A program made the translations under genes and the position numbers. A stretch of 64,000 nt of DNA from a virus (lineage: Duplodnaviria; Caudoviricetes): the IMG/VR virus record IMGVR_UViG_3300049052_000033, positions 8,365 through 72,364 of that record; one strand, written 5' to 3'. Shown here piece by piece: positions 26,101-60,947 of this stretch. Numbering within the stretch: position 1 is the first letter of the stretch; each line of letters begins with the position of its first letter. The notes below the pieces were generated by a model. The model was not told the DNA's origin and searched no databases. It saw nothing but the letters and a program-made list of their open reading frames with translations.

Positions 26101-29100
26101 TGGGCTGCATTGGCCAAGGCCGACCGCTCGCTATTCCGCACGGTGGCCTACAAGTTCATGGAAGTGGCCACGTCCCTGCTGGCGTCCCTGCGCCGCGGAC
26201 GGTTCGACGTGACGCAACTGGTGTCGGACGTGGATGCGGTGCGCAACATTATGGTGGCGACCTGGGCCGAGCATACCCGTAGCCGGGACGCACTCACGCA
26301 AGACACAGCGCGCCGCGCGGTGCCGGTCTATGCGCCGGCACTGGACGGCTTAGTGGCGCCAGAACAGCAGCTGTCGACCGACGCGCTGCACCAGCTGGCG
26401 GACGCGGTCGTAGCGCCGCTCGCGCATCCGCCGCAAATCTTCGTTCTGGATGGCCCGGAATTCCTCGACCGTCATCTGGTCGGGGCTGGCGAGGCGCCAG
26501 TGAGCGCGGGGGCGACGATCGGCGGCAAGATTTACCTGTTCCGTAACGGCATTTCCAGCCGGGATAGCGCGGCGGCCACGATCTGGCATGAGTTGTTCCA
26601 CTATGGGCTCCGAAAACTGATGACGCCGGATAATTATGTTTCGGCAATGTCGAAATTGTACAACATCGACCCACAGGTGAAGGCCTACGCCGATCGCTGG
26701 AAGGCGACCGAGGATGCGGCGACGCGCCATCGGTCCGGGGTCAGCGTGACCGACATGCACGTGCTGGCGGTGGAAGAAGCGCTGGCCGTGATGGCCGAGG
26801 AACAGCGCAACGGCAAGCCGGTCGGCACCCGCTATGCCACCGAAAGCCACATCGGCCGCATGCTGCTGTGGATGGTCAATACCGCCCGCAGCATGGGTCT
26901 GGACCGCGTGGCCGAAGCGCTGCGCAAACTGACCCGGGCGCAGGGCCAGGTGTTCGTGGAAAGCATTTTCGACCGCATCGCCGCCGGCGAACGGGAAGTC
27001 GAGGGTGCCATGGCGTCGCTCGACGGCCGCAGCATCAACTTCCGCGCAGCCGATGGTGCCCGACCTGCCACGGACAGCGACAACTTCCGCGCCTGGTTTG
27101 GTGATAGCAAGGTGGTGGACAAGGACGGGGAACCCTTGGTGGTCTACCACGGCACCACCCGTGACTTTTCCACGTTCGATATCGGCGAACCCTTCGGCGA
27201 CAAAGAGGCAGGCGCGTTCTTCACCGCCGATCCGGGCGCCGCCAGCGCCTACGCGCACAAGGAAGGCGGGCGCGTCATGCCGGCATTCCTGCGCATTGAG
27301 CACCCTTACGTCACCACGGTAGAGGACTGGGAAAGCGGCGCGGCCAGTTCAGTGGACGCCATCAAACACGAGGGCCGGCATGATGGCTATCAGGTGAAAG
27401 GCTGGTCGGACGCGGGCGACATGTGGATCGCGTTTGAGCCCGAGCAGATCAAGTCCGCGATCGGCAACGACGGCAGCTTCGATGGCGAGAACCCGGATAT
27501 CGCGTTCAGCCGTGCAGGGCTGGCCGCGGCGCTGGGCAAGGCCGCCGGCAACATTGAAAACGTGCGCCTGCCCGCCGGCTACCTGCTGGGCGACCTGTTC
27601 AACCGCAGCGGCAAGATCAGCTGGTGGCATAAAAGCATCGGCACCATGGACAACCTGGCGCGTCGCCAGCCGCTGTTCGCGCCGGTGTACCGTGCCGTGC
27701 AGGGCTTCCTGGGCGACGTGTCGCGCTATGCCGTCGTGGCAGCCAACAAGGCCCCCACCCTGTTGCCGAAGCTGGAAAAAGTCGCCGACATCCTGGGCAA
27801 GGACCGCAAGAAGCCCTTGACGGCGGAGGACACCAAGGCCATCAGCGCACCGATCTTCGAAGGCACGCTGGTGTGGGCGCGCGACGCCCACGGCAAACCG
27901 GTCAAACTGGCCGAGCTGGAAGCATGGGCCGACGGCCTGACGACCGCCCAGAAGGCCGATATCCTGCTGCAGAAGGGCATCATTGATGACGAAACGAATC
28001 AGGCCTGGCTGCACAGCCCGCTGGATCACTACGATGAAAGCATCAATCGCCGCTTCACCACCACGCAGCTGCAGGCCGGCGTGGTATGGAGCGATGCGGA
28101 GCTGCGCGAGCTGTTCCAGCTGGACGACCGTCGCATTGGCCTGTACCGCGAATTCCGCGCGGCGCTGGACCAGAGCCTGACCAACCTGACCATCAGCGAG
28201 ATGGTCAAGCTGGGCGGCAAGGATGCCGAAGGCACGCTGGACTACGCCATGGCGCAGCCGGACCTGCGCGGTGCTGCGCATTACCTGCGTGATCATTTCG
28301 TGGCGCTGGCCAAGCTGCACCCTGAAAAGGCGGACTGGCATCTGGATACGGCGCGCCAGATCATGGACCTGGCCGACCGCGGCCAGGACCTGATGGACCG
28401 TGGCTACGCGCCACTGTCGCGTTTTGGCAAGCACACCGTCTACGTGCAGCAGGGCGGCGACCAGGTGTACTTCGGCATGTTCGAAACCCCGTATGAAGCC
28501 GCCCGCATGGCGCGCCAGATGGAATCCGAGCACCCGGGCGCCGACGTGTCGCAGGGCACGGTCTCCGAAGATGCCTACAAGCTGTTCGCCGGCATCGCTC
28601 CGGAGACCATCGAGCTGTTCGGTTCCATGGTCGGGCTCGACAGCCAGGGTGACAGCGCAGGCAGCGAGGTGTACCAGTCGTACCTGAAACTGGCCAAGAA
28701 CAACCGCAGCGCGATGAAGCGCATGATCGAGCGCAAGGGCATCGCCGGCTTCTCGGAGGACGCCGGCCGCGTGCTGGCCTCGTTCATCTATTCGAATGCC
28801 CGCCTCACCTCGGGTAACGCCAATCTGGGCAAGATTGACGAGGCCATCACCACCATTCCGAAGCAGGAAGGCGAACTAACCGACGCCGCCATGCAGCTGC
28901 GCGAGACCATCCGCAATTCCGAAGGCGGCAACCGGCTGGGCGGCCTGATGTTCGCCCAGTTCCTCGGTGGGTCGGTGGCATCCGCCCTGGTCAACCTGAC
29001 GCAGCCGGTGACCATGACCTTGCCCTACCTGAGCCAATATGGTGGTATCGGCAAGGCCGGCCAGCGTCTCGCCGGCGCCATCCGCGATGCCGGCAAGCGC

Positions 29101-32179: not shown

Positions 32180-33279
32180 TATGCCGCCTCCCGTGTATCG
32201 ACTGCGATCACCTGGTTGCCATCGCCATCCCAGCCTCGCACTTCGTCGGCCGTGAACTTGCCGGCCTGCGACTGGTCGGGCGTATAGCCCCTGAAGCCGG
32301 CCTTGTGGTACAAACGGCACTCCGTGTTCCACACCACGTACAGCGCCAGACGGCCCGGGAACAGAATGTCGCGTAGGACCGCCGCACGTTCGAAGTTCAT
32401 CGCTGTGACGGCCGCGTGTAATTCGCCCTCCAGCGAACGGCGGCGGGCCTCGCTGTTACGCTTCAATCGCACCCGGTCAGGGCAGCGCGTAAGCAGCTCA
32501 AAGCTGGCAAGATTGCGAACGTCGTAGCGTCCCGTGATGACCCACCACATATTGTTGATGTTGTAGAAAGTGGTGCCCCGACACAGGCGCCCCTTGCGGT
32601 CGTAATACCAGACCACCGCGCCATGCCGCACCGTGCCGTCATCGGCCGACCGGTTGTTGTAGCTTTGTTCCTCGCCGCTACGACGCCCCAGCCCACTTTT
32701 GTGATGCCAGCACGCACGGCTGTCAGCCTGCACCCATTCCAGCGCCGTCAAGCCATCGGGTCCACAGTGGCGGGTCGAAGGAGAAAAGGCGTAGCCCGTG
32801 AAGACGTTACACAGGTAATTGCGGATACGGCGTCGGGTGCGCTCCATTTCCAGCCGCAGCAGGTACGGCATGACCGCCTCCTTGTTTGGCTCGTGCTTGC
32901 CGCCATGGTCCGGACGGTTGGGCGTGTGCACCGACTGCCACATGTCGAAACTGATGCAGCGGCCAGAAATGTGCAGTTCGCCAAACAGATCCCCTTTCCG
33001 GCAGTTGCGGCGACTTTCCGATGCCCAGCGGGCCACATCGCCACCGTAATGCTTGATATCGTGGTCGCTAACCGGTGGCAGTGCACACTGCCAGCCCAGC
33101 CGATTCAGGGTCTGCACGACACGCGCAAAGACGTCCCGCTTGAACTGGCGGGACCATGCTTTTTCGGCTGGATAGCCGCCGGCGGCACGCGCCCCGGCAA
33201 TGCCATCTTCCCAGATACCCAGGCCGGCGTCACCGAAGCGGATCTCCCCGGCACGGGTAATGCGTCCAATCGTCTTCAT
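32179..33279 (-). CDS. Phage protein with UVR-like motif near C-terminus
   Basis: ATGA overlap with methyltransferase; LEGELHAAV..MNFERAAVLRD resembles UvrB/C motif. Confidence 0.7.
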   Translation of the reverse strand: MKTIGRITRAGEIRFGDAGLGIWEDGIAGARAAGGYPAEKAWSRQFKRDVFARVVQTLNRLGWQCALPPVSDHDIKHYGGDVARWASESRRNCRKGDLFGELHISGRCISFDMWQSVHTPNRPDHGGKHEPNKEAVMPYLLRLEMERTRRRIRNYLCNVFTGYAFSPSTRHCGPDGLTALEWVQADSRACWHHKSGLGRRSGEEQSYNNRSADDGTVRHGAVVWYYDRKGRLCRGTTFYNINNMWWVITGRYDVRNLASFELLTRCPDRVRLKRNSEARRRSLEGELHAAVTAMNFERAAVLRDILFPGRLALYVVWNTECRLYHKAGFRGYTPDQSQAGKFTADEVRGWDGDGNQVIAVDTREAA

Positions 33280-34826
33280 GCTGCCATCCTCCATACTCGT
33301 TCATGGCGGAAGTTCGCTTCGATCAGCGCGCGGGCCACCGGTGGGCACACAGAATTGCCGATCATGCGAATCTGTTCCGCGTTGGTCAATGTCTTGCCGT
33401 TGTAAATCGCTTCCAGCACATAGCTTTCCGGGAAGCCTTGCGCGCGCGCCAGCTCGCGTGGCGTCAGCATGCGCATGCCGATATCGACAATCGCGTAAGG
33501 CTCGCCGCGCACCATCACCAGGGCAATACGGTCCTTGGTCGGGATGGTGTGCATCGGGTCGTCCAGCGACTGGTCCTGCCCGCCCGTGCTGTAGTACTTG
33601 ATCAGGAAGGCGCGCACTTCCGCGTGGTGGTTGCCGCCGGCGCTGACGGTATGGAGCGGTTCGGCCACGTCGGCCGCCACGCTGGTGCCGCGCAGCTTGA
33701 TCATGGTGCTGGCCACCATGGCGTCGTCGTTGGCGGCCTGCGCATCGGTCGGCCACGGCGCATCCGGCCCGATTTCCCGCCCGTTGTACTTCATCAGCAT
33801 GGCCGAGACCAGGGCGAAGTGGCCGCCCTTGACTTCGGCGCACTGGGTGCGCAGCGGTTCGTTGATATCGAACACGCGCTGGGTCGAACCATTGGCGTGC
33901 TCCGTGAGGAACGGTGCGGCGTCGCCCGGCACGATGAACGGTTCCGGGTTGTCGATGATGTACTTCATGACGCCCTTGGCGATGCGCGCCATGGTCTTGT
34001 CCGCCAGCGGCTTGGTGCGGTTGAAGATGCTGCGCACCGGGATGGACCAGTCGATGCATTCGGCTGCCGTGCGGTAGGGCAACAGACCGCTGCGGTCGAA
34101 ACCGCGCGCCTTCGGATCGCCGTGAGTGGGTGACGGCCAGCGGATCGGCTTGCCATCGCGGCGCGCGAACATGAACAGGCGTCTGCGAATGGTCGGCGTC
34201 CCGTAGTCGCAGGCGTACAAAATGCGCCATTCGACCTTGTAGCCCAGGCCCTGATACAGGCGTTCCATCGGGAAGTCGCTGCCCAGGGCTTCGTAGATTT
34301 CGGGCACGTCCGGATGGTCGCGGTCGACGCCGGTGGTCAGTGCGGCGATGAACGCGTCGAAGGTGCGGCCTTTTTCCGACTTGATGACGCGGCCCTCGTC
34401 GTCCAGAGGGCCCCATTCGCGGAATTCTTCCACGTTTTCAAGCCCAATGCAGCGCGGCGCCTGGAACGCGCCCCATTTCAGCGTGACCCAAGCGAGGCCG
34501 CGAATACCCTTTTCGCGCGGCTTGCCGCCCTTGGCCTTGCTGTGGTGCTTGCAGTCCGGACTGAACCACGCCAGTCCGATCGGGCGCTGGCCAGTGACAA
34601 GCCCCGGGTGGACGTCGAACACGTCTTCCCGGTAGTGGCGCGTGGTAGGGTGGTTGGCCGCATGCATGGCCAAGGCAGGACCATCGTGATTGATCGCGAT
34701 ATCAGGCTGGCGCCCCAGTGCCTGGTAGATGCCTTCAGAGGCGCCACCGCCGCCGGCGAAGTTGTCGATGACCAGTTCATGGCCCAGATCCAGCATCATC
34801 TGGATCAGCGCGTCCTCCCGTTTCAT
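33276..34826 (-). CDS. DNA cytosine-5 methyltransferase
   Basis: DNFAGGGG (motif I), FSPDCKHHS (IV), LENVEEF (VI), RRRLF (VIII), RELARAQGFP, IGNSVCP (X). Confidence 0.93.
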   Translation of the reverse strand: MKREDALIQMMLDLGHELVIDNFAGGGGASEGIYQALGRQPDIAINHDGPALAMHAANHPTTRHYREDVFDVHPGLVTGQRPIGLAWFSPDCKHHSKAKGGKPREKGIRGLAWVTLKWGAFQAPRCIGLENVEEFREWGPLDDEGRVIKSEKGRTFDAFIAALTTGVDRDHPDVPEIYEALGSDFPMERLYQGLGYKVEWRILYACDYGTPTIRRRLFMFARRDGKPIRWPSPTHGDPKARGFDRSGLLPYRTAAECIDWSIPVRSIFNRTKPLADKTMARIAKGVMKYIIDNPEPFIVPGDAAPFLTEHANGSTQRVFDINEPLRTQCAEVKGGHFALVSAMLMKYNGREIGPDAPWPTDAQAANDDAMVASTMIKLRGTSVAADVAEPLHTVSAGGNHHAEVRAFLIKYYSTGGQDQSLDDPMHTIPTKDRIALVMVRGEPYAIVDIGMRMLTPRELARAQGFPESYVLEAIYNGKTLTNAEQIRMIGNSVCPPVARALIEANFRHERVWRMAA

Positions 34827-35503
34827 GCAGCCTCCCGGGTAGCGCGGGTGTGCGTGGACAACGAGGCAAGGCGCTTGAACGTGATGACCCAGACCCATGG
34901 ATTGCTCAACCAGCTACCGCCGGTCGAGTCCCACAGGTCGGCGAAGCGCTGGCGCGGCGTACTGCTGGTGAACGGCCGGCCGTCCGGCAGGGTCATGGCG
35001 GTGCCTTCGGCGACGATATCGGCGTCGCTGATGGCCTGCAGGCGTTCCACGCGCACGTCGACAATCTCCAGTTCCAGGCGGCAGGCCCAGCGCGGCATGT
35101 GGATGCTGGGCCGCCAGCCTTGGCGCAGGTTCTCGTCGGAGTCGAGGTACTCCGGTGTCGGGCCACCGTCGGCCGCGTACTCGCAGTAAGCCGGCTGCTG
35201 GTAAGGCGCCGGGTTGCGCCACAGGCGTGGCGCCTCGTCGCTGCTGACCAGCGGCCCCTGCCATGTCTCGCGCACCCAGATGCGGTCGCCCGGGCCACCG
35301 TATGGGCAGTGCTGGCCTTTTTGTTTCAGCAGCTGCAGCAGCACGGCGGGATCGCCATCCCACGGCACCATGCGCGCACCCTGCACCATCATCGGGGGCG
35401 GGTCAATCAGGCGGCGCGTCATGGTCTTGGTATCGGCGAAGATGGCGCGCACTAGTGGCCCCTTGAACAGCAGCGGGGAGTATTTCGGGTTACCGGCGCT
35501 CAT
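34823..35503 (-). CDS. ASCH/PUA-like phage protein
   Basis: KTMTRR, GDRIWVRETW, WRPSIHMPRWACRLELEI..VRVERLQ.IS, NPWVWVITF. Confidence 0.8.
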   Translation of the reverse strand: MSAGNPKYSPLLFKGPLVRAIFADTKTMTRRLIDPPPMMVQGARMVPWDGDPAVLLQLLKQKGQHCPYGGPGDRIWVRETWQGPLVSSDEAPRLWRNPAPYQQPAYCEYAADGGPTPEYLDSDENLRQGWRPSIHMPRWACRLELEIVDVRVERLQAISDADIVAEGTAMTLPDGRPFTSSTPRQRFADLWDSTGGSWLSNPWVWVITFKRLASLSTHTRATREAA

Positions 35504-35899: not shown

Positions 35900-35918
35900 T
35901 TACAACAATTTATTGTAA
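35900..35918. promoter_or_regulatory. Predicted repressor operator overlapping leftward promoter of hns operon
   Basis: TTACAA-N7-TTGTAA, same arms as 53039-53057; overlaps -10 TACAAT of a TTCAAT-17-TACAAT promoter on the minus strand. Confidence 0.7.
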
Positions 35919-36018
35919 GCGATTTAAATAAATAATTGAAGTTTTTTAAAGCAGTCTGGACGGCGGCTTTAAAGCCACGTCAGAATGGCGGGGCAGGGTC
36001 ATTCAACAGGAAAGCGAT

Positions 36019-42551: not shown

Positions 42552-43691
42552 GTGAGCGGCAGCGACAAACCATCCGACGCGGGCGCGGTGCTGCCTTTCA
42601 TACACCAGGTGCTGCTGCCGGCATTGCCGGCTCCCGGCACCCTGACTAACGCCAGCACCGACGACCAGATCATCGCGCTGTGGCTGGCCCGACCGCGTAT
42701 CTCCAGCCGCACCCACCGCAACGGCGGCAAGGATGCATTGCGCTTCCAGCTCTGGTGCCGGGCCTACGGTCTCGGGCTCAAGGATGTACGCTACGAACAC
42801 CTGGTGGCGTACACCGCCTTCCTTGCCAAGATCCCGGCGGAGTGGATCAACCCAGTCAAACTGCCACGCACGGACCCTGACTGGCGGCCGTTCGCCCGGC
42901 AGCTGTCCGATCGCTCGCAACGTCAGGCGATGATCGTCATCAAGTCACTGCTGACGTGGATGCACAACGCGGAATACCTGCCCAAGAATCCGGCCAAGCT
43001 CTTGGGCAAACTGAACCTGCCGCTGGGCGAGACCGTCACTCGCTACCTGCCGACAGCCGGCATCGATTACCTATACCGCGCCGCCGATGGAATGCCGGCC
43101 GACAAGCCATCCGATATCCTACGGCGCGCCCGGGCCCGGTTTCTGGTGCGGGCCTATTACAACACAGCGACGCGTCTGTCCGAACTCGTCAACGCCAACA
43201 TGGATAGTCTGCGCCCGGACGACCACGGCGAATGGTGGCTGCATGTGATCGGCAAGGGCAACAAGGCTGGTCAGGTTCCGGTGCCCGCTGACCTGGTTGA
43301 AGAATATGGGCGGTACCGCCATGCTTTCGGGCTGCCTACCTATCCCGACGACGGTGAGGAATTACCACTGCTGCTTACCAGCCGCGGGCCCGTGCGTCGC
43401 TTGTCCGATTACGCAGCAGGCCGGGCGATCAAGCAGCTGCTACAGGCCGCTGCCCAGCTGGCGAAAGACGACGGCCAGCATCACCTGGTCAAACGCCTGA
43501 AACAAGCTTCTACCCACTGGCTGCGCCATTCCATACTGACCCATCAAGTCAATGCGGGCATGCCGATCAAGACCGTGCAATTGAATGCGCGTCACGCCGA
43601 TATCAGCACGACAGGCCACTACGTCCACAAGGAAGGACGCGAACGCCATGCCGAAACAGTAGCTGCCCTGGAAGCGCTGAACAAACGCTGA
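42552..43691 (+). CDS. Tyrosine recombinase, plasmid resolvase type
   Basis: TRLSEL (R), GKGNK (K), HWLRHS (HxxR), HADISTTGHY (H/Y); no arm-binding N-terminal domain. Confidence 0.9.
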   Translation: MSGSDKPSDAGAVLPFIHQVLLPALPAPGTLTNASTDDQIIALWLARPRISSRTHRNGGKDALRFQLWCRAYGLGLKDVRYEHLVAYTAFLAKIPAEWINPVKLPRTDPDWRPFARQLSDRSQRQAMIVIKSLLTWMHNAEYLPKNPAKLLGKLNLPLGETVTRYLPTAGIDYLYRAADGMPADKPSDILRRARARFLVRAYYNTATRLSELVNANMDSLRPDDHGEWWLHVIGKGNKAGQVPVPADLVEEYGRYRHAFGLPTYPDDGEELPLLLTSRGPVRRLSDYAAGRAIKQLLQAAAQLAKDDGQHHLVKRLKQASTHWLRHSILTHQVNAGMPIKTVQLNARHADISTTGHYVHKEGRERHAETVAALEALNKR

Positions 43692-44021: not shown

Positions 44022-45221
44022 TCATCCATCAAGCAATAGATTCGGCAGACCAAAATTCACAGGACCAGCGTCAAACACCCCCGGCTCAACACCCACCGCT
44101 GACCCCGCAGGTACCTGATGTGCACCATACTTAACAGTGCTTTGCTGAGCGCGCACTGTCTCCAGAGTGGCGACCGGCGCCGGCTGCAGGGCCGACTCAA
44201 GCAGGTGTTTATAGCTGGCTACCGTCTGGCGAGAGAGGCGGGCGACCTTAGCCACTGCGGTCTGCGTCAGCTTCACGCCCTGGTCGAGGAGCTGCCGGCA
44301 GGCGCCACGGATTTTCGATTCAGTGGCCTGGTGGCGCCGGCCGTGCGTGCGCTCGGCGGCCATGCGCTGGCGAACTTGCAGCGGAAGGCTGTCGTCCAGC
44401 TGCATCACCCCTCGATGGCATCCTCCGCTGCCTTTGTAGTAGGTCCATGTCCAGCGGGCCACAGACCGCACAGTCGATCGCAGCGACGACAACGGAAGGT
44501 TCTCGGCGAATCCATATTTGTGGAAGCTGTTATGGTTGTGGGCGAAGGCATCCAGCAATCGCGAGAACCCTTCGAACGTCCCGTTAGACCGCTCGCGGTT
44601 CACGATGGAGTAGGCGTAGTGGCGCAGCAGCTCAAACAGGATGCAGTGACGGGACTGGGCGACGTCTTCGACATTGGCTTGTTTTGCCCAGGGCGCAGTG
44701 CGTTCCAGCTCGACATGGTCGGCCAGCTCCCCCAGCTCGTACTCGTGCGCATGCAGTTCGTCGGTTAACCACCAGCGATGACCTGGTGTCTTGGCGACGG
44801 GGCCGCTGTGGAAGCTGCGGTCCGCATCCAGCCTGGCCGCCATTGCTTCGTAGATCGCCTTCATATAGGCAATCGGTTTGTCGCGTGCCGCCTCAGTCGT
44901 GCAGACCGGGACGATGGCGTAGAACAGGTGGCTTTTCCCGCTTTGCCTGTTGCGCACGATCAGGTTTGGTGCCGGCAGGCCCACGTCCTCCCAGCGCATC
45001 GCATGAGAGTGGTCCAGGTCGAAGATTAGCCAGCTGACGAACCCCGGGCGGTTGACCTGCATGTACGGGTAGCGAATGGCGTACTCGCGCGGCCGCACAC
45101 GCGTCGCGGTCTTATCGTCGCTACACCTGGGGTAATACGGGGCTTCCGTCAGGACGCGCGACAGCGCCGTCCCTTCCTGGAAGAACCGTTGTTGCGATTC
45201 TTCAATCTTAGGCACGAACAT
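44022..45221 (-). CDS. repA: Plasmid replication initiator, ColE2-type (Replicase + PriCT + HTH)
   Basis: PYYPRCSDDK, YPYMQVN, WLIFDLDH, PAPN..V.N..SG..HL.Y, SRHC.LFE.LR..AY, C-terminal HTH; GAGG RBS. Confidence 0.9.
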   Translation of the reverse strand: MFVPKIEESQQRFFQEGTALSRVLTEAPYYPRCSDDKTATRVRPREYAIRYPYMQVNRPGFVSWLIFDLDHSHAMRWEDVGLPAPNLIVRNRQSGKSHLFYAIVPVCTTEAARDKPIAYMKAIYEAMAARLDADRSFHSGPVAKTPGHRWWLTDELHAHEYELGELADHVELERTAPWAKQANVEDVAQSRHCILFELLRHYAYSIVNRERSNGTFEGFSRLLDAFAHNHNSFHKYGFAENLPLSSLRSTVRSVARWTWTYYKGSGGCHRGVMQLDDSLPLQVRQRMAAERTHGRRHQATESKIRGACRQLLDQGVKLTQTAVAKVARLSRQTVASYKHLLESALQPAPVATLETVRAQQSTVKYGAHQVPAGSAVGVEPGVFDAGPVNFGLPNLLLDG

Positions 45222-45254
45222 AGCCATCCTCGCCCCCAAAAGGGGGTAAAGTGG

Positions 45255-45283
45255 TTGACAGGGGCTAAGAGGGGGTCTAAGAT
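45255..45283 (+). promoter_or_regulatory. Strong sigma70 promoter antisense to repA leader
   Basis: TTGACA-17-TAAGAT. Confidence 0.75.
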
Positions 45284-45289
45284 GAAGCT

Positions 45290-45390
45290 TCCTAGTAAGG
45301 GGGTTCCAGCCCCCTGACGCTGCATCCAGTACCATCGACTCTGTAGCTGTACATGAAACGCCTCGGTTCCAGCCGGGGCGTTTCGCTTTT
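45290..45390 (+). ncRNA. Predicted counter-transcribed copy-control RNA (~100 nt)
   Basis: Promoter upstream; stem-loops 45298-45315 and 45355-45384 with identical TTCCAG loops; T tract 45387-45390. Confidence 0.6.
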
Positions 45391-49819: not shown

Positions 49820-49838
49820 CTACAACAAATAGTTGAAG
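49820..49838. promoter_or_regulatory. Predicted repressor operator at leftward early promoter
   Basis: CTACAA-CAAATAG-TTGAAG, nearly identical to reverse complement of 53064-53082. Confidence 0.7.
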
Positions 49839-49971: not shown

Positions 49972-50979
49972 ATGTCCCGGCTGCCCCTATACCGACACCC
50001 AACGACAACCGTCATTCTTGACGAGTCGCAGCACCACATTCACGCCGTGCCAACCGAGCTGGATACCCAGCACCCGACCGTCACCTTTACGAATGCGGCG
50101 GATGCCGTCGAATACATCACCGGGGCGCAGGCGATGATGGACCATGCACGCAGCCCGATTGCCCTGGATCCTGTGGCGCCGGCGGCTGGCGTTCCGGTCG
50201 GGTCGCTTTCGGACGGGCTCGACCACATTTACGGCTACGTGCAGGACCCGCAGCGATTCTGCGCGCCGGCAGTCGTGGTCGTTGAATACTCGCGCGCCGC
50301 CGGCGGGGGCATGGAGTTTTGCGAGGAAATCGCGCACCTGCCCGTCAAGTGCATCTGGCGGTCCCGTGCCGCGGAGCAGCACGATGGTATTGCGGCCTAT
50401 CAGCGCGGCCTGGTCAATCGGTTTGTGCAGCGCGAAGCGGGCTGGGCCAGCCGCGGCCTGTTGGAGTCCGTGGAAATGCTCGAGCACGAATACTTCGTGG
50501 AGCTATCCCAGCGCCTTCCGGGGCACATCCTTGATACTGCGTCCTATCGCTTCCTGCAGGACCCGGCATTTGCCTCCCTGGTGCAGGAGCAGGCCGACCG
50601 CTATGGATTCGTCGAGCACTACCTGTTCACGGCACCCAGCGGCCTGTTGTTTTTCGACGCCGATGGGCATGCCACCTTGATGGTCGTCCAGACCGAAGAA
50701 AGCTTGGCCACCCAGTTCGAAATCGCGCGTGACGCGCAGGCACCGGTGCGCCTGTTGCAGGACCTGTTCAAGTGCAGGGTGGTGCCGTTTTTCGGCACGG
50801 AGGATGGCATGTACTCCGACCAGCTGGAGGACGATCCATGCAGCTATTGCCAGCCGGCGCTCGTATGTCGCGGAAGCAGCGACTACTACTGGGCATTGTT
50901 TGACGTGCCGCCCGGTATGCGAAAGGGCCAGGCCTTCCCTTATGCCCGGTATCGCGAGACAGGCCCGCTACGCGGTTAG
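49972..50979 (+). CDS. LqsR/JqsR-like response regulator with degenerate receiver (phospho-Asp replaced by Glu)
   Basis: PTTTVILDES...RF...VVVVEYS...GMEFC...IAAYQRGLV.RFVQR...F.QD.AF...EHYL...G.LFFDADG architecture matches LqsR family as recalled; GGAG RBS. Confidence 0.8.
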   Translation: MSRLPLYRHPTTTVILDESQHHIHAVPTELDTQHPTVTFTNAADAVEYITGAQAMMDHARSPIALDPVAPAAGVPVGSLSDGLDHIYGYVQDPQRFCAPAVVVVEYSRAAGGGMEFCEEIAHLPVKCIWRSRAAEQHDGIAAYQRGLVNRFVQREAGWASRGLLESVEMLEHEYFVELSQRLPGHILDTASYRFLQDPAFASLVQEQADRYGFVEHYLFTAPSGLLFFDADGHATLMVVQTEESLATQFEIARDAQAPVRLLQDLFKCRVVPFFGTEDGMYSDQLEDDPCSYCQPALVCRGSSDYYWALFDVPPGMRKGQAFPYARYRETGPLRG

Positions 50980-50984
50980 GGCCG

Positions 50985-51881
50985 CTACGATAGAAGGCCC
51001 AAGCGCACCGCTGCATCGACAATCTGGTTGGTGGTCTCGACGCCCAGCTTTCCCTTGATCGCCTTAATGCGGCGGTCAATGGTCGGAATGCTCACGCCCA
51101 TGAAGGCAGCAATTTCTTTGCGCAGGCGGCCATTCTTCAGGTAGGCAATGATCTCCACGTCATTCGCCGGAATTCCGACTTCGTCTTGCTCCTGCGCTGA
51201 GGCCGCACGGGCAGCTTGCAATCGCCCCAGCAAGGCATGCGCGGCGTGGGCCAGCATGATCAGGTTTGGCTCCATTTGCGCCAGCTCGACCGGGTCAATG
51301 TCCGGATCTGCGCGCGATAGGACCAGAGTAGCCAGGCCGTCATCGGAGCGGAGCACCCAGCCAGAGCGAATACCGTGCCGGCTCGCCAGTGACCAGAACG
51401 CCGGGTTTTCTGCATGGCGTTCTCGCGCGGTCCATGTGGTTGGCCCTGTCATTTGGTTGACGCGTGGATCGATCAGGACAAGTTGTTCCCGATCGTAGGC
51501 CTCGCGCCATTCCCGCAGGTGATTGTGTTCTACCACCATGTCGCCTGGGTCGCGCGCAGAGTGGGCCACGCCCAGCGTGGTGCCGAAACCGAATTTCTCG
51601 CGCGCCAGCTTGGCGATCGCCGAAAACTGCTTGTGATCGGGCAGGTCTTGCAGTTCACGAATGATGCGTTTGCCCCACCGGTTGGTCCCGTCGCGGTGCT
51701 CGATCGGCAAGGTGAGCGGCGCGTCGCGCGCCTGGCGCTGCACTCGTTCCGCCGACAGGATGCGTTGATGAATGGTCTTGAGCTGCAGCCAAGGCTGCCA
51801 ATCGACACGGCGACGAATCCTGCGCAGCACGAAACTGGCGAACTCGCCGGCCGGCACCGGCATGCCCGTGCTCTCCGACAT
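50985..51881 (-). CDS. LuxR-family regulator with autoinducer-binding domain (LuxR solo)
   Basis: WREAY...IDP...W...FW..A..HG..SG and C-terminal LuxR HTH (EIAAFMGVS..TI...I..I..KLG). Confidence 0.88.
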   Translation of the reverse strand: MSESTGMPVPAGEFASFVLRRIRRRVDWQPWLQLKTIHQRILSAERVQRQARDAPLTLPIEHRDGTNRWGKRIIRELQDLPDHKQFSAIAKLAREKFGFGTTLGVAHSARDPGDMVVEHNHLREWREAYDREQLVLIDPRVNQMTGPTTWTARERHAENPAFWSLASRHGIRSGWVLRSDDGLATLVLSRADPDIDPVELAQMEPNLIMLAHAAHALLGRLQAARAASAQEQDEVGIPANDVEIIAYLKNGRLRKEIAAFMGVSIPTIDRRIKAIKGKLGVETTNQIVDAAVRLGLLS

Positions 51882-52360
51882 AGCGTAATGTTCGACGTGA
51901 TGCCATGCGGCGGGATGACGAACCGTCGAAGGCTATCATCGTAGTACCAGTGCCATCGGACCCACACATCCGGCTGATAGCTTCCACGCCATTCAGCGAA
52001 TCCCGCTATCAGGACCGGGAAAAGGCGCTTCAATTGCTCCAGCAGCTGGTCGTCCACGTCGATCGTCAGGCGGCGCTGCGCGATGCGCTTCAAGGCTGCG
52101 CGGGTCAGGCGCACTTCCTGGTCGTGGGTTGAGCCGGTCATGTCGTTGCCTGTGTGGCGAAATGCGTGTGGGGACGGACAAGCGGGTGTTACCAAGCCTA
52201 TCACGAAAGCTATCACGTCCTTGATAGTTTAAGCTCAGCTGTTACATTGTCACAGTGCGCTTAATTGATAGCTAACAGGTGTTGCCTTGGCGCCATCGGC
52301 GATGCCAAGATACTGACCTCGTTTCTTGACTTACATCAACAATCGTAAAGGTAGCGTTCG

Positions 52361-52621
52361 ATGAGTAAAGTGGTATCCCGCCTGACCCGCATTGCAACCG
52401 GTAGCATGACCTCTGATCGTACTGAAGCCGCGGCGCTCTACGCCCTGGCACAAGCCTATCGCCGCGCGTCGCGGGCCGATCAGGCCTATTTACTGGCGGT
52501 GGCCCAAGACCTGGGCCGTGGCGAAGATTTGGAAATGGAGCAAGTCGTGGCCCGCATGCCGGCGCCGGCTTCCCGTGGAAGGTTACGCTTGGTTCAGGGC
52601 GGCGGGCGGCAGAGCCGGTAA
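52361..52621 (+). CDS. Small protein resembling repressor C-terminal domain; candidate antirepressor
   Basis: Divergent from luxR, convergent on cI; L..[FY]R..[ST].A.Q..LL..A pattern shared with cI. Confidence 0.55.
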   Translation: MSKVVSRLTRIATGSMTSDRTEAAALYALAQAYRRASRADQAYLLAVAQDLGRGEDLEMEQVVARMPAPASRGRLRLVQGGGRQSR

Positions 52622-53029
52622 CTCCCCTGCAGGCTTTTTCTCAATCCGTGCGGCCGACAGCAGCAGCTGTCGCTGGCCGGCATCGGTGCCCATGCGGAAG
52701 TGGTGCAGCAGTTCCATCTCCTTCGTCCCCTCGACGAAAACCAGCAAATACTCCGGCTGCTGCCGACGCGGGCCGGTGGGGATCGTCTGGACCTGGCCAT
52801 CGATGTCGCCATACAACAAGTAGGATTCGGTCACCCCGAAGTGCATGGCCAGCTTGGTCAGCATGGCAGGGCGTGGAAGCTGCGGGCCAGTCAGCCATTT
52901 GCTGACCGCTTGCGGCGAAGTCCCGACGATGCGCGCAAGTTCGGACTGGTTGCCGTCGTGATATTCGTGCAGTAAGGCTCTGAGGCGGTCCGCGAAAGTT
53001 TCCGGCGCCTTCTCTTTCATTTGTTCCAT
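52583..53029 (-). CDS. cI: Phage repressor, XRE HTH, no S24 peptidase domain
   Basis: NQSELARIVGTSPQAVSKWL HTH; divergent from cro-like gene. Confidence 0.88.
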   Translation of the reverse strand: MEQMKEKAPETFADRLRALLHEYHDGNQSELARIVGTSPQAVSKWLTGPQLPRPAMLTKLAMHFGVTESYLLYGDIDGQVQTIPTGPRRQQPEYLLVFVEGTKEMELLHHFRMGTDAGQRQLLLSAARIEKKPAGELPALPPAALNQA

Positions 53030-53038
53030 TGCAATAGG

Positions 53039-53057
53039 TTACAACGTTTCGTTGTAA
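53039..53057. promoter_or_regulatory. Operator in cI/cro intergenic region
   Basis: Perfect TTACAACG-TTT-CGTTGTAA. Confidence 0.8.
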
Positions 53058-53063
53058 ATGGCA

Positions 53064-53105
53064 CTTCAATATTTTGTTGTAGAAACCCCTCTGTTGTTTT
53101 AATAT
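53064..53105 (+). promoter_or_regulatory. Second operator (53064-53082) overlapping pR-like promoter
   Basis: CTTCAA-N7-TTGTAG; TTGTAG-17-TAATAT. Confidence 0.7.
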
Positions 53106-53140: not shown

Positions 53141-53338
53141 TTGAGTACAGGAATAGCAAAGGCAGTGGAGCTTGCCGGCAATTCGCAGACAGGCCTCGCT
53201 AAAGCCATCGGGTTGACCCCGCAGGCCGTACAGCGCTGGGTGTCGCTGGGCCGCACTTCCGCGCAGGGCGCTGTGCTGATTGAAAAGGCCTACCCGGGCC
53301 GCATTACGCGCGCCGAACTCTGTCCGATCTTCGCCTGA
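53141..53338 (+). CDS. cro: Cro/YdaS-like regulator
   Basis: TTG start with AGGA RBS; SQTGLAKAIGLTPQAVQRW...I...E....ITRAELCP. Confidence 0.85.
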   Translation: MSTGIAKAVELAGNSQTGLAKAIGLTPQAVQRWVSLGRTSAQGAVLIEKAYPGRITRAELCPIFA

Positions 53339-53368: not shown

Positions 53369-53671
53369 ATGACCAACGAAACCACTGCAGTAGAGACTGA
53401 ACTGGAATTCTCGCGTTCCTCGCTACTTGACGAGGTTCAATTATCTCCGGAAGTGACCAGCCGGTCACGCAAGAATCAATCGGTAATCTTGCAAAAGATG
53501 CAGGAAGTGACGGGCGTTGAGTTGGCGGCCCGCATGGGCTTCCACGAATCCCAGATTTCGCGCTTCAAGAATGGCCCGTTGCAGTTCGCTGCCTGCCTGC
53601 TGGCAGCAGCAGGCCTGAAAGTGGTGCCGGCCGACGCCGTGGTCTATGTCAAGCCGACCGAGTACGAATGA
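53369..53671 (+). CDS. cII: CII-like transcriptional regulator
   Basis: ELAARMGFHESQISRFK...A.LLAAAGLKVVP resembles lambda CII; follows cro. Confidence 0.8.
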   Translation: MTNETTAVETELEFSRSSLLDEVQLSPEVTSRSRKNQSVILQKMQEVTGVELAARMGFHESQISRFKNGPLQFAACLLAAAGLKVVPADAVVYVKPTEYE

Positions 53672-53847: not shown

Positions 53848-54177
53848 ATGAACATCAAAACTGTACCACAGCAGGCGGAGCTTTGCCGCAACCATGCCCT
53901 CACGTCGCTGGCGGCCCATTCGAACGGCCTGACCGTGCGCGAACTCCAGCAGCTGCTGCCCCCGAAGACCGTGCGCCAGCAGGACCTGCAGGCCGCCATT
54001 GACGTCCTGCAAGACGAAGGCGAGGTCGACTACGAGCAGCGCCGATCGGAAACCAAAGTGTACTTCCTGGCGAAGCGTCCACCACGCGCCCGTATCGTGC
54101 GCGTCGCCGCCCACTCACTGCCACCCGTGCAAATGGCCCCGCGTACCTGGTTCGCCGCACTGGGGGCCACAGCATGA
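53848..54177 (+). CDS. Hypothetical winged-helix-like protein
   Basis: 109 aa ORF; GLTVRELQQLL helix. Confidence 0.55.
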   Translation: MNIKTVPQQAELCRNHALTSLAAHSNGLTVRELQQLLPPKTVRQQDLQAAIDVLQDEGEVDYEQRRSETKVYFLAKRPPRARIVRVAAHSLPPVQMAPRTWFAALGATA

Positions 54178-54350
54178 TGTACGACCTGGCCCGAAACGAG
54201 CGGCAACACCGCGCCATATCCACGGAGAGCGTGTCCGGAGCTTATTCCCCTATGAAGACCTGCACGGGCGAGTGCCGCCGTCGCCGGTCCATTACCCAAT
54301 TCAAAAGCGGCAGCAGTGTGTGCATGCGCTGCGCCCGGAGAACTGCATGA
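54174..54350 (+). CDS. Small Cys-containing protein (58 aa, below ORF-track cutoff)
   Basis: ATGA overlaps at both ends; CTGEC...CMRC. Confidence 0.55.
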   Translation: MMYDLARNERQHRAISTESVSGAYSPMKTCTGECRRRRSITQFKSGSSVCMRCARRTA

Positions 54351-55435
54351 GTTTCTTGCACGTCATATCCGTATCGGGCGGCAAAGACAGCGCGGCAACG
54401 CTGCTGCTGGCTATCGCCCGCTTCGGCAAGCACACCGTCCGCCCGATTTTCTGTGACACCGGTAACGAAGACGACCACGTCTACGACTACCTCGACTATC
54501 TGGAAGACGTCACGGGACTGACGATCGTCCGCTTAAAGGCGGATTTCGCCGACCAGTTCCCACGCAAGCGCATGTTCATCGCCCGCGACGTCCGGACCCG
54601 TCGCGAGTATGACATCAAGCCCGTGGTCGACGCGGAGGGCAATCCGGTCTACCAGCGCGACGCGCGCGGTCAGATCGTATTGAACAGCAAGGGCAAGCCG
54701 GTCCAGAAACAGCGAAAGGTGGGAGGCGGTCGACGCGTGCGCTGGACCAACAAGGCCAAGCGCCGAGCCTTGGCGGCGCTGCACCCGACCGGGAATCCCT
54801 TCCTCGACCTCTGCATGCTGAAAGGGCGATTCCCCAGCCGGCGCGCCCAGTTCTGCACCGAGGAACTGAAACGCAATATCGCGGTCGAGTACCAGCTGGA
54901 ACTCATGGACCAAGGCTACACGGTCATTTCGTGGCAGGGCGTCCGTCGCGACGAGTCCGACGCCCGTAAGGACGTGCGGTCCGTGGAGCGCGTGGGTCCA
55001 CAGTTGTGGATCTATCGCCCCATCGCGGCCTGGACCGCCAACCAGGTATTCATCTACTGCGCGTCGCAAGGCGTTAAGCCGAATCCCCTGTATCTGCAGG
55101 ATATGAGCCGTGTAGGCTGCATGTACTGCATCAACGCCAACAAGGATGAAATCCGTGCAGTGGCGCTGCGCTTCCCGCAACATCCGCGGCGCATCGCCGC
55201 GTGGGAAATGATCGTCTCGCGATGCTCAAAACGCGGGTTCTCCACCTTCTTCCACAAGGTCGACGGGCTGACTGGCTCCCCGGCGTCCATCTTTGAACAG
55301 TGCAAGATTGAAACCGTAATGCAATGGGCCAAAACTTCACGCGGCGGCCGTCAATTCTCGCTGCTGACGGCGTTGGAAGAACCAACGGGATGCTCGTCCT
55401 CTTACGGGCTGTGCGATGCGGCCGCGGCGAACTGA
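54347..55435 (+). CDS. PAPS-reductase-family protein
   Basis: SVSGGKDS PP-loop, DTGNE, GVRRDES..R, RPI..WT, RVGC..C. Confidence 0.88.
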   Translation: MSFLHVISVSGGKDSAATLLLAIARFGKHTVRPIFCDTGNEDDHVYDYLDYLEDVTGLTIVRLKADFADQFPRKRMFIARDVRTRREYDIKPVVDAEGNPVYQRDARGQIVLNSKGKPVQKQRKVGGGRRVRWTNKAKRRALAALHPTGNPFLDLCMLKGRFPSRRAQFCTEELKRNIAVEYQLELMDQGYTVISWQGVRRDESDARKDVRSVERVGPQLWIYRPIAAWTANQVFIYCASQGVKPNPLYLQDMSRVGCMYCINANKDEIRAVALRFPQHPRRIAAWEMIVSRCSKRGFSTFFHKVDGLTGSPASIFEQCKIETVMQWAKTSRGGRQFSLLTALEEPTGCSSSYGLCDAAAAN

Positions 55436-55449
55436 TGGAGGGCCTGAAC

Positions 55450-56298
55450 ATGGAAATTACACGTCCAGCGCTGCGGTACCACGGCGGTAAATTCCGCCTT
55501 GCCGACTGGATCCAGTCGTTCTTCCCTGCGCATACCTGCTACGTCGAACCGTTTGGCGGCGCCGCCGGCGTCCTGCTGCAGAAAGAGCGCTGCTATGCCG
55601 AGGTCTATAACGACCTGGACGGTATGGTGGTCAACTTCTTCCGCGTGCTGCGGGACCCAGTCCTGCGTCAGCGACTGATGGAAGCTGTCGCCGCGACCCC
55701 TTATGCACGTGAGGAATTCAGCCTGGCGTGGGACGACGTCGAAGATCCGATCGAACGTGCACGGCGCCTTTGCATTCGGGCCCAGATGGGGTTCGGTTCG
55801 GCCGGCGCCACCAAGGGCAGCACGGGCTTCCGCATCGACACCAAGCGCGAATATGGAACCGCCCAGCACTTGTGGGCGCAGTACCCCGCGACGCTGGCGG
55901 CCGTCGGCGAGCGCTTCGCCGGCGTCCTGATCGAGAACAAGCCGGCCGTTGAGGTCATGCAGCAGCATGACGCGGCGTCAACCCTGCATTACGTCGACCC
56001 ACCATATGTGCACTCGACCCGCACTCGCCCCAGAACCGGCAGCTATCGCCACGAGCTGGATGACAGCGACCATGTCGAGCTGCTGACCGCGCTTAAGCAA
56101 TTGAGCGGCAATGTCGTGTTGTCCGGGTATGACACCAGCCTCTACAACGACCTGCTGCCAAGCTGGCGCAAGCACTCCACAAGCGCGCGCATCAGCGGAT
56201 GCCAGGGTTCGGAAATACGCCATGAAGTGGTCTGGATCAACCCGCGCTGTTCCGAGGCCTTGGACGCCGAAGCCGCCCAACAGCGACTGTTTGCATAA
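55450..56298 (+). CDS. DNA adenine methyltransferase (D12/Dam class)
   Basis: YHGGK, YVEPFGG, YNDLD, DPPY; GGAGG RBS. Confidence 0.92.
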   Translation: MEITRPALRYHGGKFRLADWIQSFFPAHTCYVEPFGGAAGVLLQKERCYAEVYNDLDGMVVNFFRVLRDPVLRQRLMEAVAATPYAREEFSLAWDDVEDPIERARRLCIRAQMGFGSAGATKGSTGFRIDTKREYGTAQHLWAQYPATLAAVGERFAGVLIENKPAVEVMQQHDAASTLHYVDPPYVHSTRTRPRTGSYRHELDDSDHVELLTALKQLSGNVVLSGYDTSLYNDLLPSWRKHSTSARISGCQGSEIRHEVVWINPRCSEALDAEAAQQRLFA

Positions 56299-59867: not shown

Positions 59868-60947
59868 ATGCCCTACACACTGTTCAAGGTCGGTAAGGTC
59901 TACCACTACCGCTTCCAGGTCAAGCCCTTTAATCGGGTGCAACGCAGTACGCGCGAGCGCCATCACGGCCGCGCCGATGCCGTAGCGCGCCGAGCCTACG
60001 ACGATGCGGTCCTGCGCTCCAATGGCGGCGAGCCGGTACCGACCCTGCGCCAGCTCGCTGCCGACTGGCAGGCCTTGCATAGGCCGCCGGCGATCAGCTC
60101 CGCCCATGCGCGCAGCGTCGACGTATTCATCCGCCTGCACATGGAACCCCTGGCTGACTTGCCGCTGAACCAACTGAGCACCGACGTGGTGGAGCGCGCC
60201 CGCAATGCGCACCTGACCACCCACGCCCCGGCCACCGCCAACCACTGGCTGCGCATCCTCAAGCTGCTGGTCAACTGGGGCGTGCGGCGCAACATGCTGC
60301 CGCGCCTACCATGGAAAGTGCCCATGTTGAAAGTGCAAAAGCGGCCGCGCGCCGTGCTGCCGCTGGCCACCGCCATGACGTGGTTCGCCGCGCTCGACCA
60401 TGCCAGCCGCCGCACGCCCGGGGTCGCCCGAGCCGTGCGCCTCATGTTCGGGATCGGATTGCGCGAAATGGAGGCAGCCGGCGCCCGCTGGGAGTGGTTC
60501 GACTGGGAGCGCGCCACGTACACCCCGGGCGAAACCAAAGGCCGCGAAGCCGAACCGGTGCCGGTCCCCGACTGGTTGCTGGATTACCTTGCACCGCTGC
60601 GTCAAGTGGAAGGGCTGGTCGCGCCGCGCGCCAACGGTCGCCAGCTGCCGATCGGCTATGCCCGCCACGCCATGCAGGCCGCCAACGCCAAATGCCTGAC
60701 CAAGGGCATCACGCCGCACCGCCTGCGCGGCACGTTCGCCACGCTGTTGTCAGAGCAGGGGGTGCCGGTCCAGACCATTCAGGCGATCCTGCGCCACAAG
60801 AGCCCCCTGACCACGATGGCTTACCTAGAAAAGAACATGGAAACCGCCGCACGCGGCCAGCGCGGCATTGCCGACAAGACCGGGCTGGCGCGGCGCAAAA
60901 GTGGCGAACAGCACCCGGCAAACCCGCATGAACACACAACTTCGTGA
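59868..60947 (+). CDS. Tyrosine recombinase/integrase with arm-binding-like N-terminus
   Basis: YHYRF...QRST N-domain; GLREME, TKG, HRLRGTF, HKSPLTT.AY. Confidence 0.85.
   Translation: MPYTLFKVGKVYHYRFQVKPFNRVQRSTRERHHGRADAVARRAYDDAVLRSNGGEPVPTLRQLAADWQALHRPPAISSAHARSVDVFIRLHMEPLADLPLNQLSTDVVERARNAHLTTHAPATANHWLRILKLLVNWGVRRNMLPRLPWKVPMLKVQKRPRAVLPLATAMTWFAALDHASRRTPGVARAVRLMFGIGLREMEAAGARWEWFDWERATYTPGETKGREAEPVPVPDWLLDYLAPLRQVEGLVAPRANGRQLPIGYARHAMQAANAKCLTKGITPHRLRGTFATLLSEQGVPVQTIQAILRHKSPLTTMAYLEKNMETAARGQRGIADKTGLARRKSGEQHPANPHEHTTS

Follow-up and report, generated by a model that had tools for sequence, protein, structure and literature searches.

Does a temperate phage that also replicates as a plasmid in Massilia-type soil bacteria carry copies of parts of two different bacterial quorum-sensing systems, plus a small conserved gene, right beside its lysis-lysogeny repressor, and may it thus time host killing by listening to, or faking, host cell-to-cell signals? 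This question is raised by positions 49972-53029 of a window of 64,000 nucleotides (positions 8,365 to 72,364 of the 72-kb IMG/VR virus record IMGVR_UViG_3300049052_000033). A preliminary description of this locus listed a pseudo-LqsR/JqsR regulator, a LuxR solo, a small open reading frame (ORF), and a cI repressor lacking a peptidase domain. This observation was confirmed, as all four genes were retrieved at these positions, with one correction: the supposed LuxR solo is the 3' part of a gene coding for a chimera of 385 amino acids (aa) that combines RsaM (DUF4902) and LuxR (52141->50985) and that is split in this record by a 1-nt deletion at about position 51881. The features of the region are the following.

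49820..49838, no strand: cI-type operator-like site (CTACAAC-N5-GTTGAAG) in the divergent promoter region between the leftward small-gene operon and the JqsR-like gene
49972..50979, plus strand: LqsR/JqsR-family regulator of 335 aa with a pseudo-receiver and a retained LqsR-type output domain
50985..51881, minus strand: LuxR part of the RsaM-LuxR chimera gene (linker, AHL-binding domain, and HTH), in this record a separate ORF of 298 aa starting at an ATG created at the frameshift
51882..52141, minus strand: RsaM-like (DUF4902) N-terminal domain of the chimera, out of frame with the LuxR part
52198..52277, no strand: conserved core of the 219-bp divergent intergenic region, with repeats and promoter-like sites
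52361..52621, plus strand: small ORF of 86 aa, divergent from the chimera gene and convergent with cI, its last 39 nt overlapping the 3' end of cI; candidate antirepressor
52583..53029, minus strand: cI-type repressor of 148 aa, with an N-terminal HTH_3 domain and a conserved C-terminal region of about 75 aa without S24 peptidase
53039..53082, no strand: two 19-bp operators between cI and cro (53039-53057 and 53064-53082)
53165..53338, plus strand: Cro-like HTH protein (YdaS/Cro family; PF15943, 1.4e-10), called as a 57-aa gene in sibling contigs
53369..53671, plus strand: cII-like protein (PF05269, E 1.2e-4, above its cut-off)

The first gene belongs to the LqsR/JqsR response-regulator family, based on full-length sequence and predicted fold. 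A phmmer search against the PDB returned only LqsR (6sy9; E 6e-21, residues 4-278), and the AF2 model (pLDDT 85.9, pTM 0.85) matched 6sy9 first (E 3e-24, TMq 0.73, TMt 0.79), the next hit being at 6e-5, whereas no Pfam hit reached E 0.1. The receiver active site is degenerate, with D17-E18 in place of DD, E105 (codon 50284-50286) in place of the phospho-acceptor Asp (LqsR D108; PMC3376566), S131, and R154 in place of the conserved Lys, which makes phosphotransfer implausible. In contrast, all 66 JqsS-linked chromosomal homologues possess the DD-D-T-K signature. These 66 chromosomal loci have JqsS upstream and most also have JqsA, whereas the phage-type loci have the RsaM-LuxR gene, cI, and ParA instead. 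The phage JqsR-like proteins form one well-supported group, as does the Glu-type group of nine sequences (SH-aLRT 99). A sister group of the phage JqsR-like proteins keeps a complete phospho-acceptor site, which fits listening to host JqsS as the older state, with a signal-blind form derived in the window's group, although the tree is not rooted by an outgroup. A conserved GGAGA ribosome-binding site and a TATACT box lie upstream of the gene. The dN/dS value against the relative L002 was 0.18 (0.20 for the receiver and 0.16 for the output domain), and the output domain is as conserved as in the group that keeps Asp, indicating that the pseudo-receiver is selected and not decaying. However, dS values were near saturation, so that all dN/dS figures are rough.

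The second gene encodes a LuxR-type receptor (Autoind_bind, PF03472, 6e-15). Alignment with QscR (3szt) showed that W62, Y66, D75, P76, and W90 are kept as W125, Y129, D138, P139, and W150 (the conserved pocket residues of LuxR-type AHL receptors are TraR W57, Y61, D70, P71, W85, and G113), and the HGIRSGW motif is kept; these residues are invariant in seven chimeras. The match to the GerE HTH was weak (PF00196, 17.6 bits, E 0.003, below the cut-off of 23.5), although the full-length alignment to QscR and RhlR runs through the HTH and the relative P0024 carries a precomputed PF00196 hit. No Autoind_synth match was found in the 72-kb record, nor in the control genomes, while the same model did detect luxI in the Massilia frigida genome; hence, no cognate luxI accompanies the receptor gene. 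Bases 51882-52141 encode an RsaM domain (PF16245, 37.2 bits against a cut-off of 25; PDB 4o2h, E 9e-5). In relatives and near-identical siblings this domain is fused in frame to the LuxR part as one gene of 378-397 aa, unlike the stand-alone RsaM of 140-170 aa that is encoded as its own transcription unit beside luxI/luxR. A Foldseek search with the chimera model of P0024 placed it with QscR, RhlR, SdiA, and TraR, and with RsaM 4o2h (E 7e-7, TMt 0.61). In the window, the two tblastn segments meet at the junction in different frames, the DNA lacking one base. The deletion may be real or an assembly error, the only evidence being that two contigs encoding the identical JqsR-like protein carry an intact 385-aa gene here; unless it is an assembly error, this particular genome may not make the full protein.

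No family was found for the small ORF, and a look-up in the ESM Atlas returned only sub-threshold hits and a low-confidence model. However, it is conserved in place and orientation in the relatives L002, L086, L087, L003, and L007, with the shared motif A(D/S)xA(Y/F)LLxVA, a GC content by codon position of 0.70/0.55/0.67, and a dN/dS of about 0.26 against L002. The possibility that it mimics the C-terminal domain of cI was not supported but not excluded, as BLASTP gave E 0.91 and hhalign found the same register (small ORF 28-49 against cI 106-127), albeit at E 0.56 and a probability of 0.1%. The cI-type repressor matched HTH families only. No Peptidase_S24 (PF00717) occurs anywhere in the 72-kb record, whereas nine control genomes did respond to this search, so that some antirepressor route is needed. 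The operator-like pattern YTWCAAY-N5-RTTGWAR had six matches in the window against 0.05 expected, including the two sites between cI and cro. Relatives carry the same motif 120-160 bp upstream of their JqsR-like gene, and a leftward sigma-70-like promoter (49873-49846) abuts the site at 49820-49838. Alignment of four relatives revealed the conserved intergenic core, which contains TGATAG/CTATCA half sites (52198, 52209, 52222, and 52266), the inverted repeat CTATCA-N6-TGATAG (52209-52226), and the 17-bp palindrome CTGTTACATTGTCACAG (52239-52255), which is unique in the window. Back-to-back promoter-like sites (plus strand, 52221-52248; minus strand, 52253-52226) overlap them.

Which kind of element carries this region? 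Genes for portal, major head, tail fibre, and internal virion proteins were present, as well as those for ParA, ParB, and an O-like replication initiator in the window. The ORF at 44022-45335 had no PHROG hit, but its counterpart in relatives carries Replicase/PriCT_1. The same layout (ParB-ParA ... JqsR-like >< RsaM-LuxR, small ORF, cI, cro) recurs in at least ten elements, most of them contigs of 72-80 kb, and three of the elements come from cultured Antarctic Massilia. The JqsR-like gene and the chimera gene are adjacent and convergent in all ten elements with readable context. The same holds in the element L095, in which the chimera is only 36% identical and no cI is nearby, so that the two-gene cassette can exist apart from a phage switch. 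No near-identical DNA was found among GenBank phages or PLSDB plasmids. A single-sequence pattern scan of IMG/VR returned nothing, while a profile-based scan returned two relatives. No LqsR-family gene was found by tblastn in 50,697 GenBank phage records, in PHROGs, or in the papers searched, in line with the remark in the preliminary description that no phage with such a gene is described.

The region is best explained, with a probability of about one in two, as the lysis-lysogeny control region of a temperate, podovirus-like phage-plasmid of Massilia-type Oxalobacteraceae that carries, beside a non-cleavable cI repressor, a transcription-factor/small-ORF induction module of the kind known from ARM81ld, Apop, and VP882. 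First, the chimera, an AHL-type LuxR receptor carrying an N-terminal RsaM domain on a flexible linker, would bind the conserved repeats in the divergent intergenic region. Second, with its ligand bound, it would turn on the small ORF. Third, the small protein would inactivate cI, and its transcript, running antisense into the 3' end of cI, may add to the effect. Lastly, loss of cI would derepress cro and the lytic genes. The convergent JqsR-like gene is a fixed but unexplained partner of the chimera; in relatives with an intact receiver it could take phosphate from the host kinase JqsS and so feed the alpha-hydroxyketone signal into the same decision, whereas in the window's group it would be signal-blind, either locked in one output state or acting as a decoy. 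LqsR-family proteins have no known DNA-binding or partner-binding activity, so this role is a guess. While the gene identities, the degenerate receiver, the fusion and its frameshift, the conservation of the layout, and purifying selection follow from the analysis, every step of this pathway is inferred, namely expression, AHL binding, DNA binding (including which protein recognises the intergenic repeats), activation of the small-ORF promoter, phosphotransfer and phosphorylation-dependent dimerisation, and contact between the small protein and cI. The conserved palindrome overlaps the predicted -10 box of the small-ORF promoter, which would suit a repressor better than an activator.

The interpretation given in the preliminary description is therefore supported only in part. 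The family assignments and the analogy to VP882 and ARM81ld hold, but that the phage reads AHL, overrides the host Jqs system, and links either to induction remains inference. Also, AHL from neighbours, as had been suggested, is not needed, since Massilia frigida, host of a relative, has its own luxR-luxI pair and its own jqsA-jqsS-jqsR.

Known systems resemble the module to different extents. As in the XRE-LuxR/smORF modules of the Aeromonas phage-plasmids ARM81ld and Apop (Silpe et al. 2023, PMC10432266), a gene for a phage LuxR-type receptor is divergent from a small ORF without homologues, next to the cI-type repressor on a phage-plasmid with par genes; the LuxRs studied there also needed a second protein. 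However, the partner here is not an upstream XRE co-transcribed with luxR but an RsaM domain fused to the LuxR, plus a convergent LqsR-family gene, the cI is not autoproteolytic, in contrast with those of that study set, and the host is a betaproteobacterium. Vibriophage VP882 similarly copies a host quorum-sensing receptor (VqmA_Phi) that drives a small antirepressor against cI (Qtip), but the receptor family and signal (DPO) are different and only a single quorum-sensing input is known there. LqsR of Legionella, JqsR of Janthinobacterium HH01, and PhcX of Ralstonia share the receiver and output domains over their full length, but the window's protein differs in its receiver site, in the absence of linked lqsA/lqsS-type genes, and in being phage-encoded and paired with an RsaM-LuxR gene. 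Finally, the chimera was already noted as a rare LuxR solo of topology type 8 in two Massilia species (Venturi et al. 2023, PMC10710839), with the same domain order (DUF4902, autoinducer-binding domain, HTH), no luxI nearby, and the same host genus, and is very likely of the same protein family. That review does not mention phages at all, so it does not place the gene on a phage or plasmid, and it mentions, in the parts consulted, neither the adjacent JqsR-like gene, nor the small ORF, nor cI; the copy in the window is frameshifted.

Alternatively, though less likely, the region may be a lysogenic-conversion cassette whose JqsR-like protein and RsaM-LuxR chimera act on host quorum sensing, with the signal-blind JqsR as decoy or locked output and RsaM as a damper of host AHL signalling, located near cI only because that region is transcribed in lysogens and without control over induction. 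Indeed, the LqsR family has a degenerate GGDEF-like output domain and no DNA-binding domain and acts on host physiology (PMC10653808), and RsaM is a global negative regulator of AHL circuits with an unknown, probably protein-protein, mode of action (PMC10710839). Also, the cassette occurs without an adjacent cI in L095, the only DUF4902 domain in the M. frigida genome is that of the phage, and the promoter-like box of the JqsR-like gene lies about 75-125 bp from the cI-type operators, so that the gene may be on in lysogens. However, this explains neither the conserved small ORF wedged divergently between the chimera and cI in the six elements where it was read, nor how a non-cleavable cI is inactivated, and the arrangement matches characterised induction modules.

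A more doubtful alternative is SOS-type control, the small ORF being a Tum-like antirepressor held off by host LexA at the CTGT-N9-ACAG palindrome, with the quorum-sensing genes as accessories and induction driven essentially by DNA damage. Non-cleavable repressors are commonly inactivated by SOS-controlled antirepressors (PMC10432266), and the palindrome, which overlaps the predicted -10 box, resembles the proteobacterial LexA box. However, its spacing is N9 and not the N8 of the LexA box, no CTGT-N8-ACAG site exists anywhere in the window, and the palindrome is poorly kept in L086 and L087, whereas the TGATAG repeats are kept. Decaying cargo captured from the host is very unlikely despite the split chimera gene and the receiver without its Asp and Lys or any remaining Pfam receiver hit, as siblings with the identical JqsR-like protein have the intact chimera, open frames are kept across a group that has diverged to 45% identity or less, dN/dS is 0.09-0.26 for every part, and the Glu-type group is well supported.

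A further reading, speculative and improbable but compatible with the evidence, is that the phage wires two host quorum-sensing languages into one lysis decision by direct protein contact. The JqsR-like protein, phosphorylated by host JqsS in the Asp-type phages, would dock on the RsaM domain of the AHL-binding chimera and gate its activation of the small ORF, whereas in the window's group a Glu phosphomimic would have locked that gate, so that only AHL is read. If true, this would also reveal what RsaM domains and LqsR output domains do, which is unknown for both.

Phage eavesdropping on bacterial quorum sensing is known for DPO/VqmA, AHL/LuxR, and peptide systems, whereas no report was found of a phage gene from the alpha-hydroxyketone (Cqs/Lqs/Jqs) pathway. 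Here, a whole family of phage-plasmids, related elements of which appear to be carried by three cultured Massilia strains, Massilia frigida CCM 8695, Massilia sp. CCM 9210, and M. antarctica, keeps such a gene welded to a gene for a putative AHL receptor next to its repressor, and one branch has turned the receiver into a form for which phosphorylation is implausible. This offers a natural test case for multi-signal control of prophage induction, a natural Asp-to-Glu experiment on an LqsR-family regulator, and a handle on two proteins whose mode of action is unknown, RsaM and the LqsR output domain.

The record from which the window was taken, an IMG/VR virus record of 72,364 bp of which the window covers bases 8365-72364, is rated 91% complete by CheckV. 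The window encodes a portal, a major head protein, tail fibres, and internal virion proteins, as well as ParA, ParB, an O-like replication initiator, and two tyrosine recombinases. In addition, ORF 44022-45335 did not give a PHROG hit, but its counterpart in relatives carries Replicase/PriCT_1. It is therefore a temperate phage with plasmid maintenance genes. The two tyrosine recombinase/integrase genes (42552-43691 and 59868-60947), occurring in an element that also has ParAB and a plasmid-type replicase, may represent dimer resolvases rather than integrases. In the virion block, a single ORF of 3418 aa (20179-30435, + strand), following an internal virion protein of 619 aa (12555-14414, phrog_511), probably encodes a giant ejected or internal virion protein of a podovirus-like particle. 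Furthermore, a PAPS-reductase-like gene and several DNA methyltransferases were found (53999-56298 and 33276-34898), and relatives have a similar block to the right of cII. Near-identical DNA was retrieved neither among GenBank phages nor among PLSDB plasmids.

All four ORFs of the quorum-sensing region were found exactly where the preliminary description had placed them, so that its observation held, with one correction concerning the LuxR gene. The genes of this region are:
49972-50979 (+ strand), LqsR/JqsR-like gene, 335 aa
50985-51881 (- strand), LuxR ORF, 298 aa
52361-52621 (+ strand), small ORF, 86 aa
52583-53029 (- strand), cI-type repressor, 148 aa
53165-53338, Cro-like gene
53369-53671, cII-like gene

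The first ORF did not give a Pfam hit at an E value of 0.1 or better. Against PDB sequences, it matched one entry only, namely LqsR of Legionella (6sy9; E 6e-21, residues 4-278). Indeed, an AF2 model of this protein (pLDDT 85.9, pTM 0.85) hit 6sy9 at an E value of 3e-24 and a TMt of 0.79, the next hit being at 6e-5. The second ORF contained an autoinducer-binding domain (6e-15) and a weak match to a GerE HTH. For the third ORF, no family was found in Pfam, NCBIfam, or PHROGs, and the ESM Atlas gave sub-threshold hits only. The fourth ORF is an HTH_3 repressor without a peptidase; no S24 domain occurs in the whole record, although the same search responded in nine control genomes.

The correction concerns the gene that the preliminary description had taken for a LuxR solo, which is part of an RsaM-LuxR chimera that is broken in this record. 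The minus-strand frame upstream of the LuxR ORF carries a DUF4902/RsaM domain, scoring 37 bits against a cut-off of 25 and matching the RsaM homologue 4o2h at an E value of 9e-5. In the relative L002, one gene of 387 aa possesses DUF4902, Autoind_bind, and GerE. A tblastn search with that protein on the window gave two segments, 78% and 68% identical, that abut at base 51881 in different frames. Compared with L002, the window lacks one base between '...ACGCT' and 'ATG...'. However, two other contigs that encode the identical JqsR-like protein have an intact gene of 385 aa at this place. The split is thus particular to this record, as judged from assembled sequences alone. An AF2 model of the L002 protein predicted an RsaM domain (residues 10-110), a disordered linker (119-153), a LuxR ligand-binding domain (155-313), and an HTH, and Foldseek matched this model with QscR, RhlR, SdiA, and TraR, as well as with 4o2h. 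The AHL-pocket residues W, Y, D, P, and W align with W62, Y66, D75, P76, and W90 of QscR and are invariant in seven chimeras. This chimera has already been recorded as the rare 'type 8' in two Massilia species and was called a LuxR solo (Venturi et al. 2023, PMC10710839), in a text in which the word 'phage' does not occur. Among 1.84 billion representative proteins, only about ten clusters at 50% identity span both domains.

The LqsR/JqsR-like gene encodes a pseudo-receiver of phage descent. A database search gave 22 relatives, many of them on contigs of 76-80 kb. A scan of one genome per prokaryote species found 153 relatives, of which the best 80 loci were kept, originating mostly from Duganella, Pseudoduganella, Massilia, Janthinobacterium, and Gallionellaceae. 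In 66 loci, the gene follows a JqsS-type kinase, and most of these also have a JqsA-type synthase, representing the classical jqsA-jqsS-jqsR cluster (PMC3566124). Every one of those 66 keeps the receiver signature DD-D-T-K. In contrast, phage-type loci have the RsaM-LuxR gene, cI, and ParA. On a maximum-likelihood tree, not rooted by an outgroup, the 17 phage-type sequences, ten of which have a verified phage context, are one side of a branch with an SH-aLRT of 100. Within these, nine form a group (SH-aLRT 99) in which the phospho-acceptor is Glu, Ala, or Lys, the Lys is Arg, Ser, or Asn, and the acidic pair is often altered, whereas the other eight (SH-aLRT 98) keep all these residues. The window has D17-E18, E105, and R154, whereby E105 aligns with D108 of LqsR. 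The Glu-type receiver is only 31% identical to chromosomal JqsRs, against 44% for the Asp-type, while the output domain is equally conserved in both (41% and 40%, respectively). Between the window and L002, dN/dS is 0.20 for the receiver and 0.16 for the output domain, albeit with dS near saturation, indicating that the gene is maintained and not decaying. As the PDB entries hit by the AF2 model include, according to their titles, a constitutively active PhoB D10A/D53E double mutant, a 'locked-on' reading of Glu is reasonable, although it remains unproven for this protein.

The same gene order, namely ParB, ParA, small leftward genes, the JqsR-like gene, the convergent chimera, the small ORF, cI, and cro, recurs in the window and its siblings, L002, two IMG/VR contigs of 76.8 and 77.0 kb, Massilia sp. 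CCM 9210, Massilia frigida CCM 8695, a contig of 79.7 kb, and Massilia antarctica. As inferred from contigs of equal size, it also occurs on those of P0008/P0028 and P0004/P0027, which are further relatives. In L095 (6001-8210; GCA_965233055.1, a contig of 298 kb), a chimera only 36% identical is again convergent with an Asp-type JqsR-like gene, but without cI, ParA, or a recognisable small ORF beside it, and the cassette is flanked by the same gene types as the PAPS-reductase-like and DNA methyltransferase genes mentioned above. The two regulators therefore behave as a cassette, which exists outside the phage-plasmid immunity region too. A chimera 27% identical lacks the partner. The small ORF is kept in position and orientation in six elements and shares the motif A(D/S)xA(Y/F)LLxVA; its dN/dS is about 0.26.

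The 219-bp region between the chimera and the small ORF contained conserved TGATAG/CTATCA half sites and a 17-bp palindrome (52239-52255), overlapped by back-to-back promoter-like sites. A different 19-bp motif marks the putative cI/cro operators at 53039 and 53064 and recurs at 49820, upstream of the JqsR-like gene, and at 35900 and 35923, against 0.05 matches expected. Relatives have this motif upstream of their JqsR-like gene too. The copies at 35900 (exact) and 35923 (one mismatch), spanning 35900-35941 and located 17 kb from the immunity region, suggest that cI controls a distant promoter as well. No canonical LexA box was present. Furthermore, both convergent gene pairs lack room for terminators, as the stop codons of the JqsR-like gene and the chimera (50979/50985) are 5 nt apart and the small ORF overlaps cI by 39 nt (52583-52621). 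Convergent transcription could itself be regulatory, for example as antisense against cI.

Concerning the host, Massilia frigida CCM 8695, a cultured strain that carries a related element of the Asp-type, has its own chromosomal jqsA-jqsS-jqsR cluster and a luxR-luxI pair, making it a ready experimental system. The only DUF4902 domain in that genome is the one of the phage. Both signals can thus be host-made.

The arrangement fits the TF-smORF induction modules described by Silpe et al. 2023 (PMC10432266), in which a phage transcription factor turns on a divergent small ORF that inactivates cI and in which the phage LuxRs need a second protein. This is considered the most likely mechanism (probability of about 0.5), with the JqsR-like protein as a conserved partner of unknown action. 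The identities of the genes, the degenerate receiver, the fusion and its frameshift, the recurring layout, and the maintenance of the genes follow from the sequences analyzed, whereas expression, ligand binding, and protein contacts are inferred. Of the interpretation put forward in the preliminary description, the family assignments and the analogy to VP882/ARM81ld are supported, whereas the statements that the phage reads one quorum-sensing language, overrides another one, and links this to induction remain inferences. Alternatively, the genes may form a lysogenic-conversion cassette aimed at host quorum sensing, which is possible but less likely. SOS control of the small ORF seems doubtful. 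That the genes are mere relics is very unlikely.

A tblastn search with the JqsR-like protein against 50,697 GenBank phage records did not return any hit, and PHROGs does not contain a family for it. Likewise, a full-text literature search for LqsR in connection with phages returned no titles or abstracts about a phage-borne copy, and a review of phage quorum sensing from 2025 mentions neither alpha-hydroxyketones nor Lqs. Compared with the TF-smORF modules already described, the present module brings in one component new to phages, and it shows that a known oddity, the RsaM-LuxR chimera of Massilia, is phage-borne in every context that could be read within its closer relatives.
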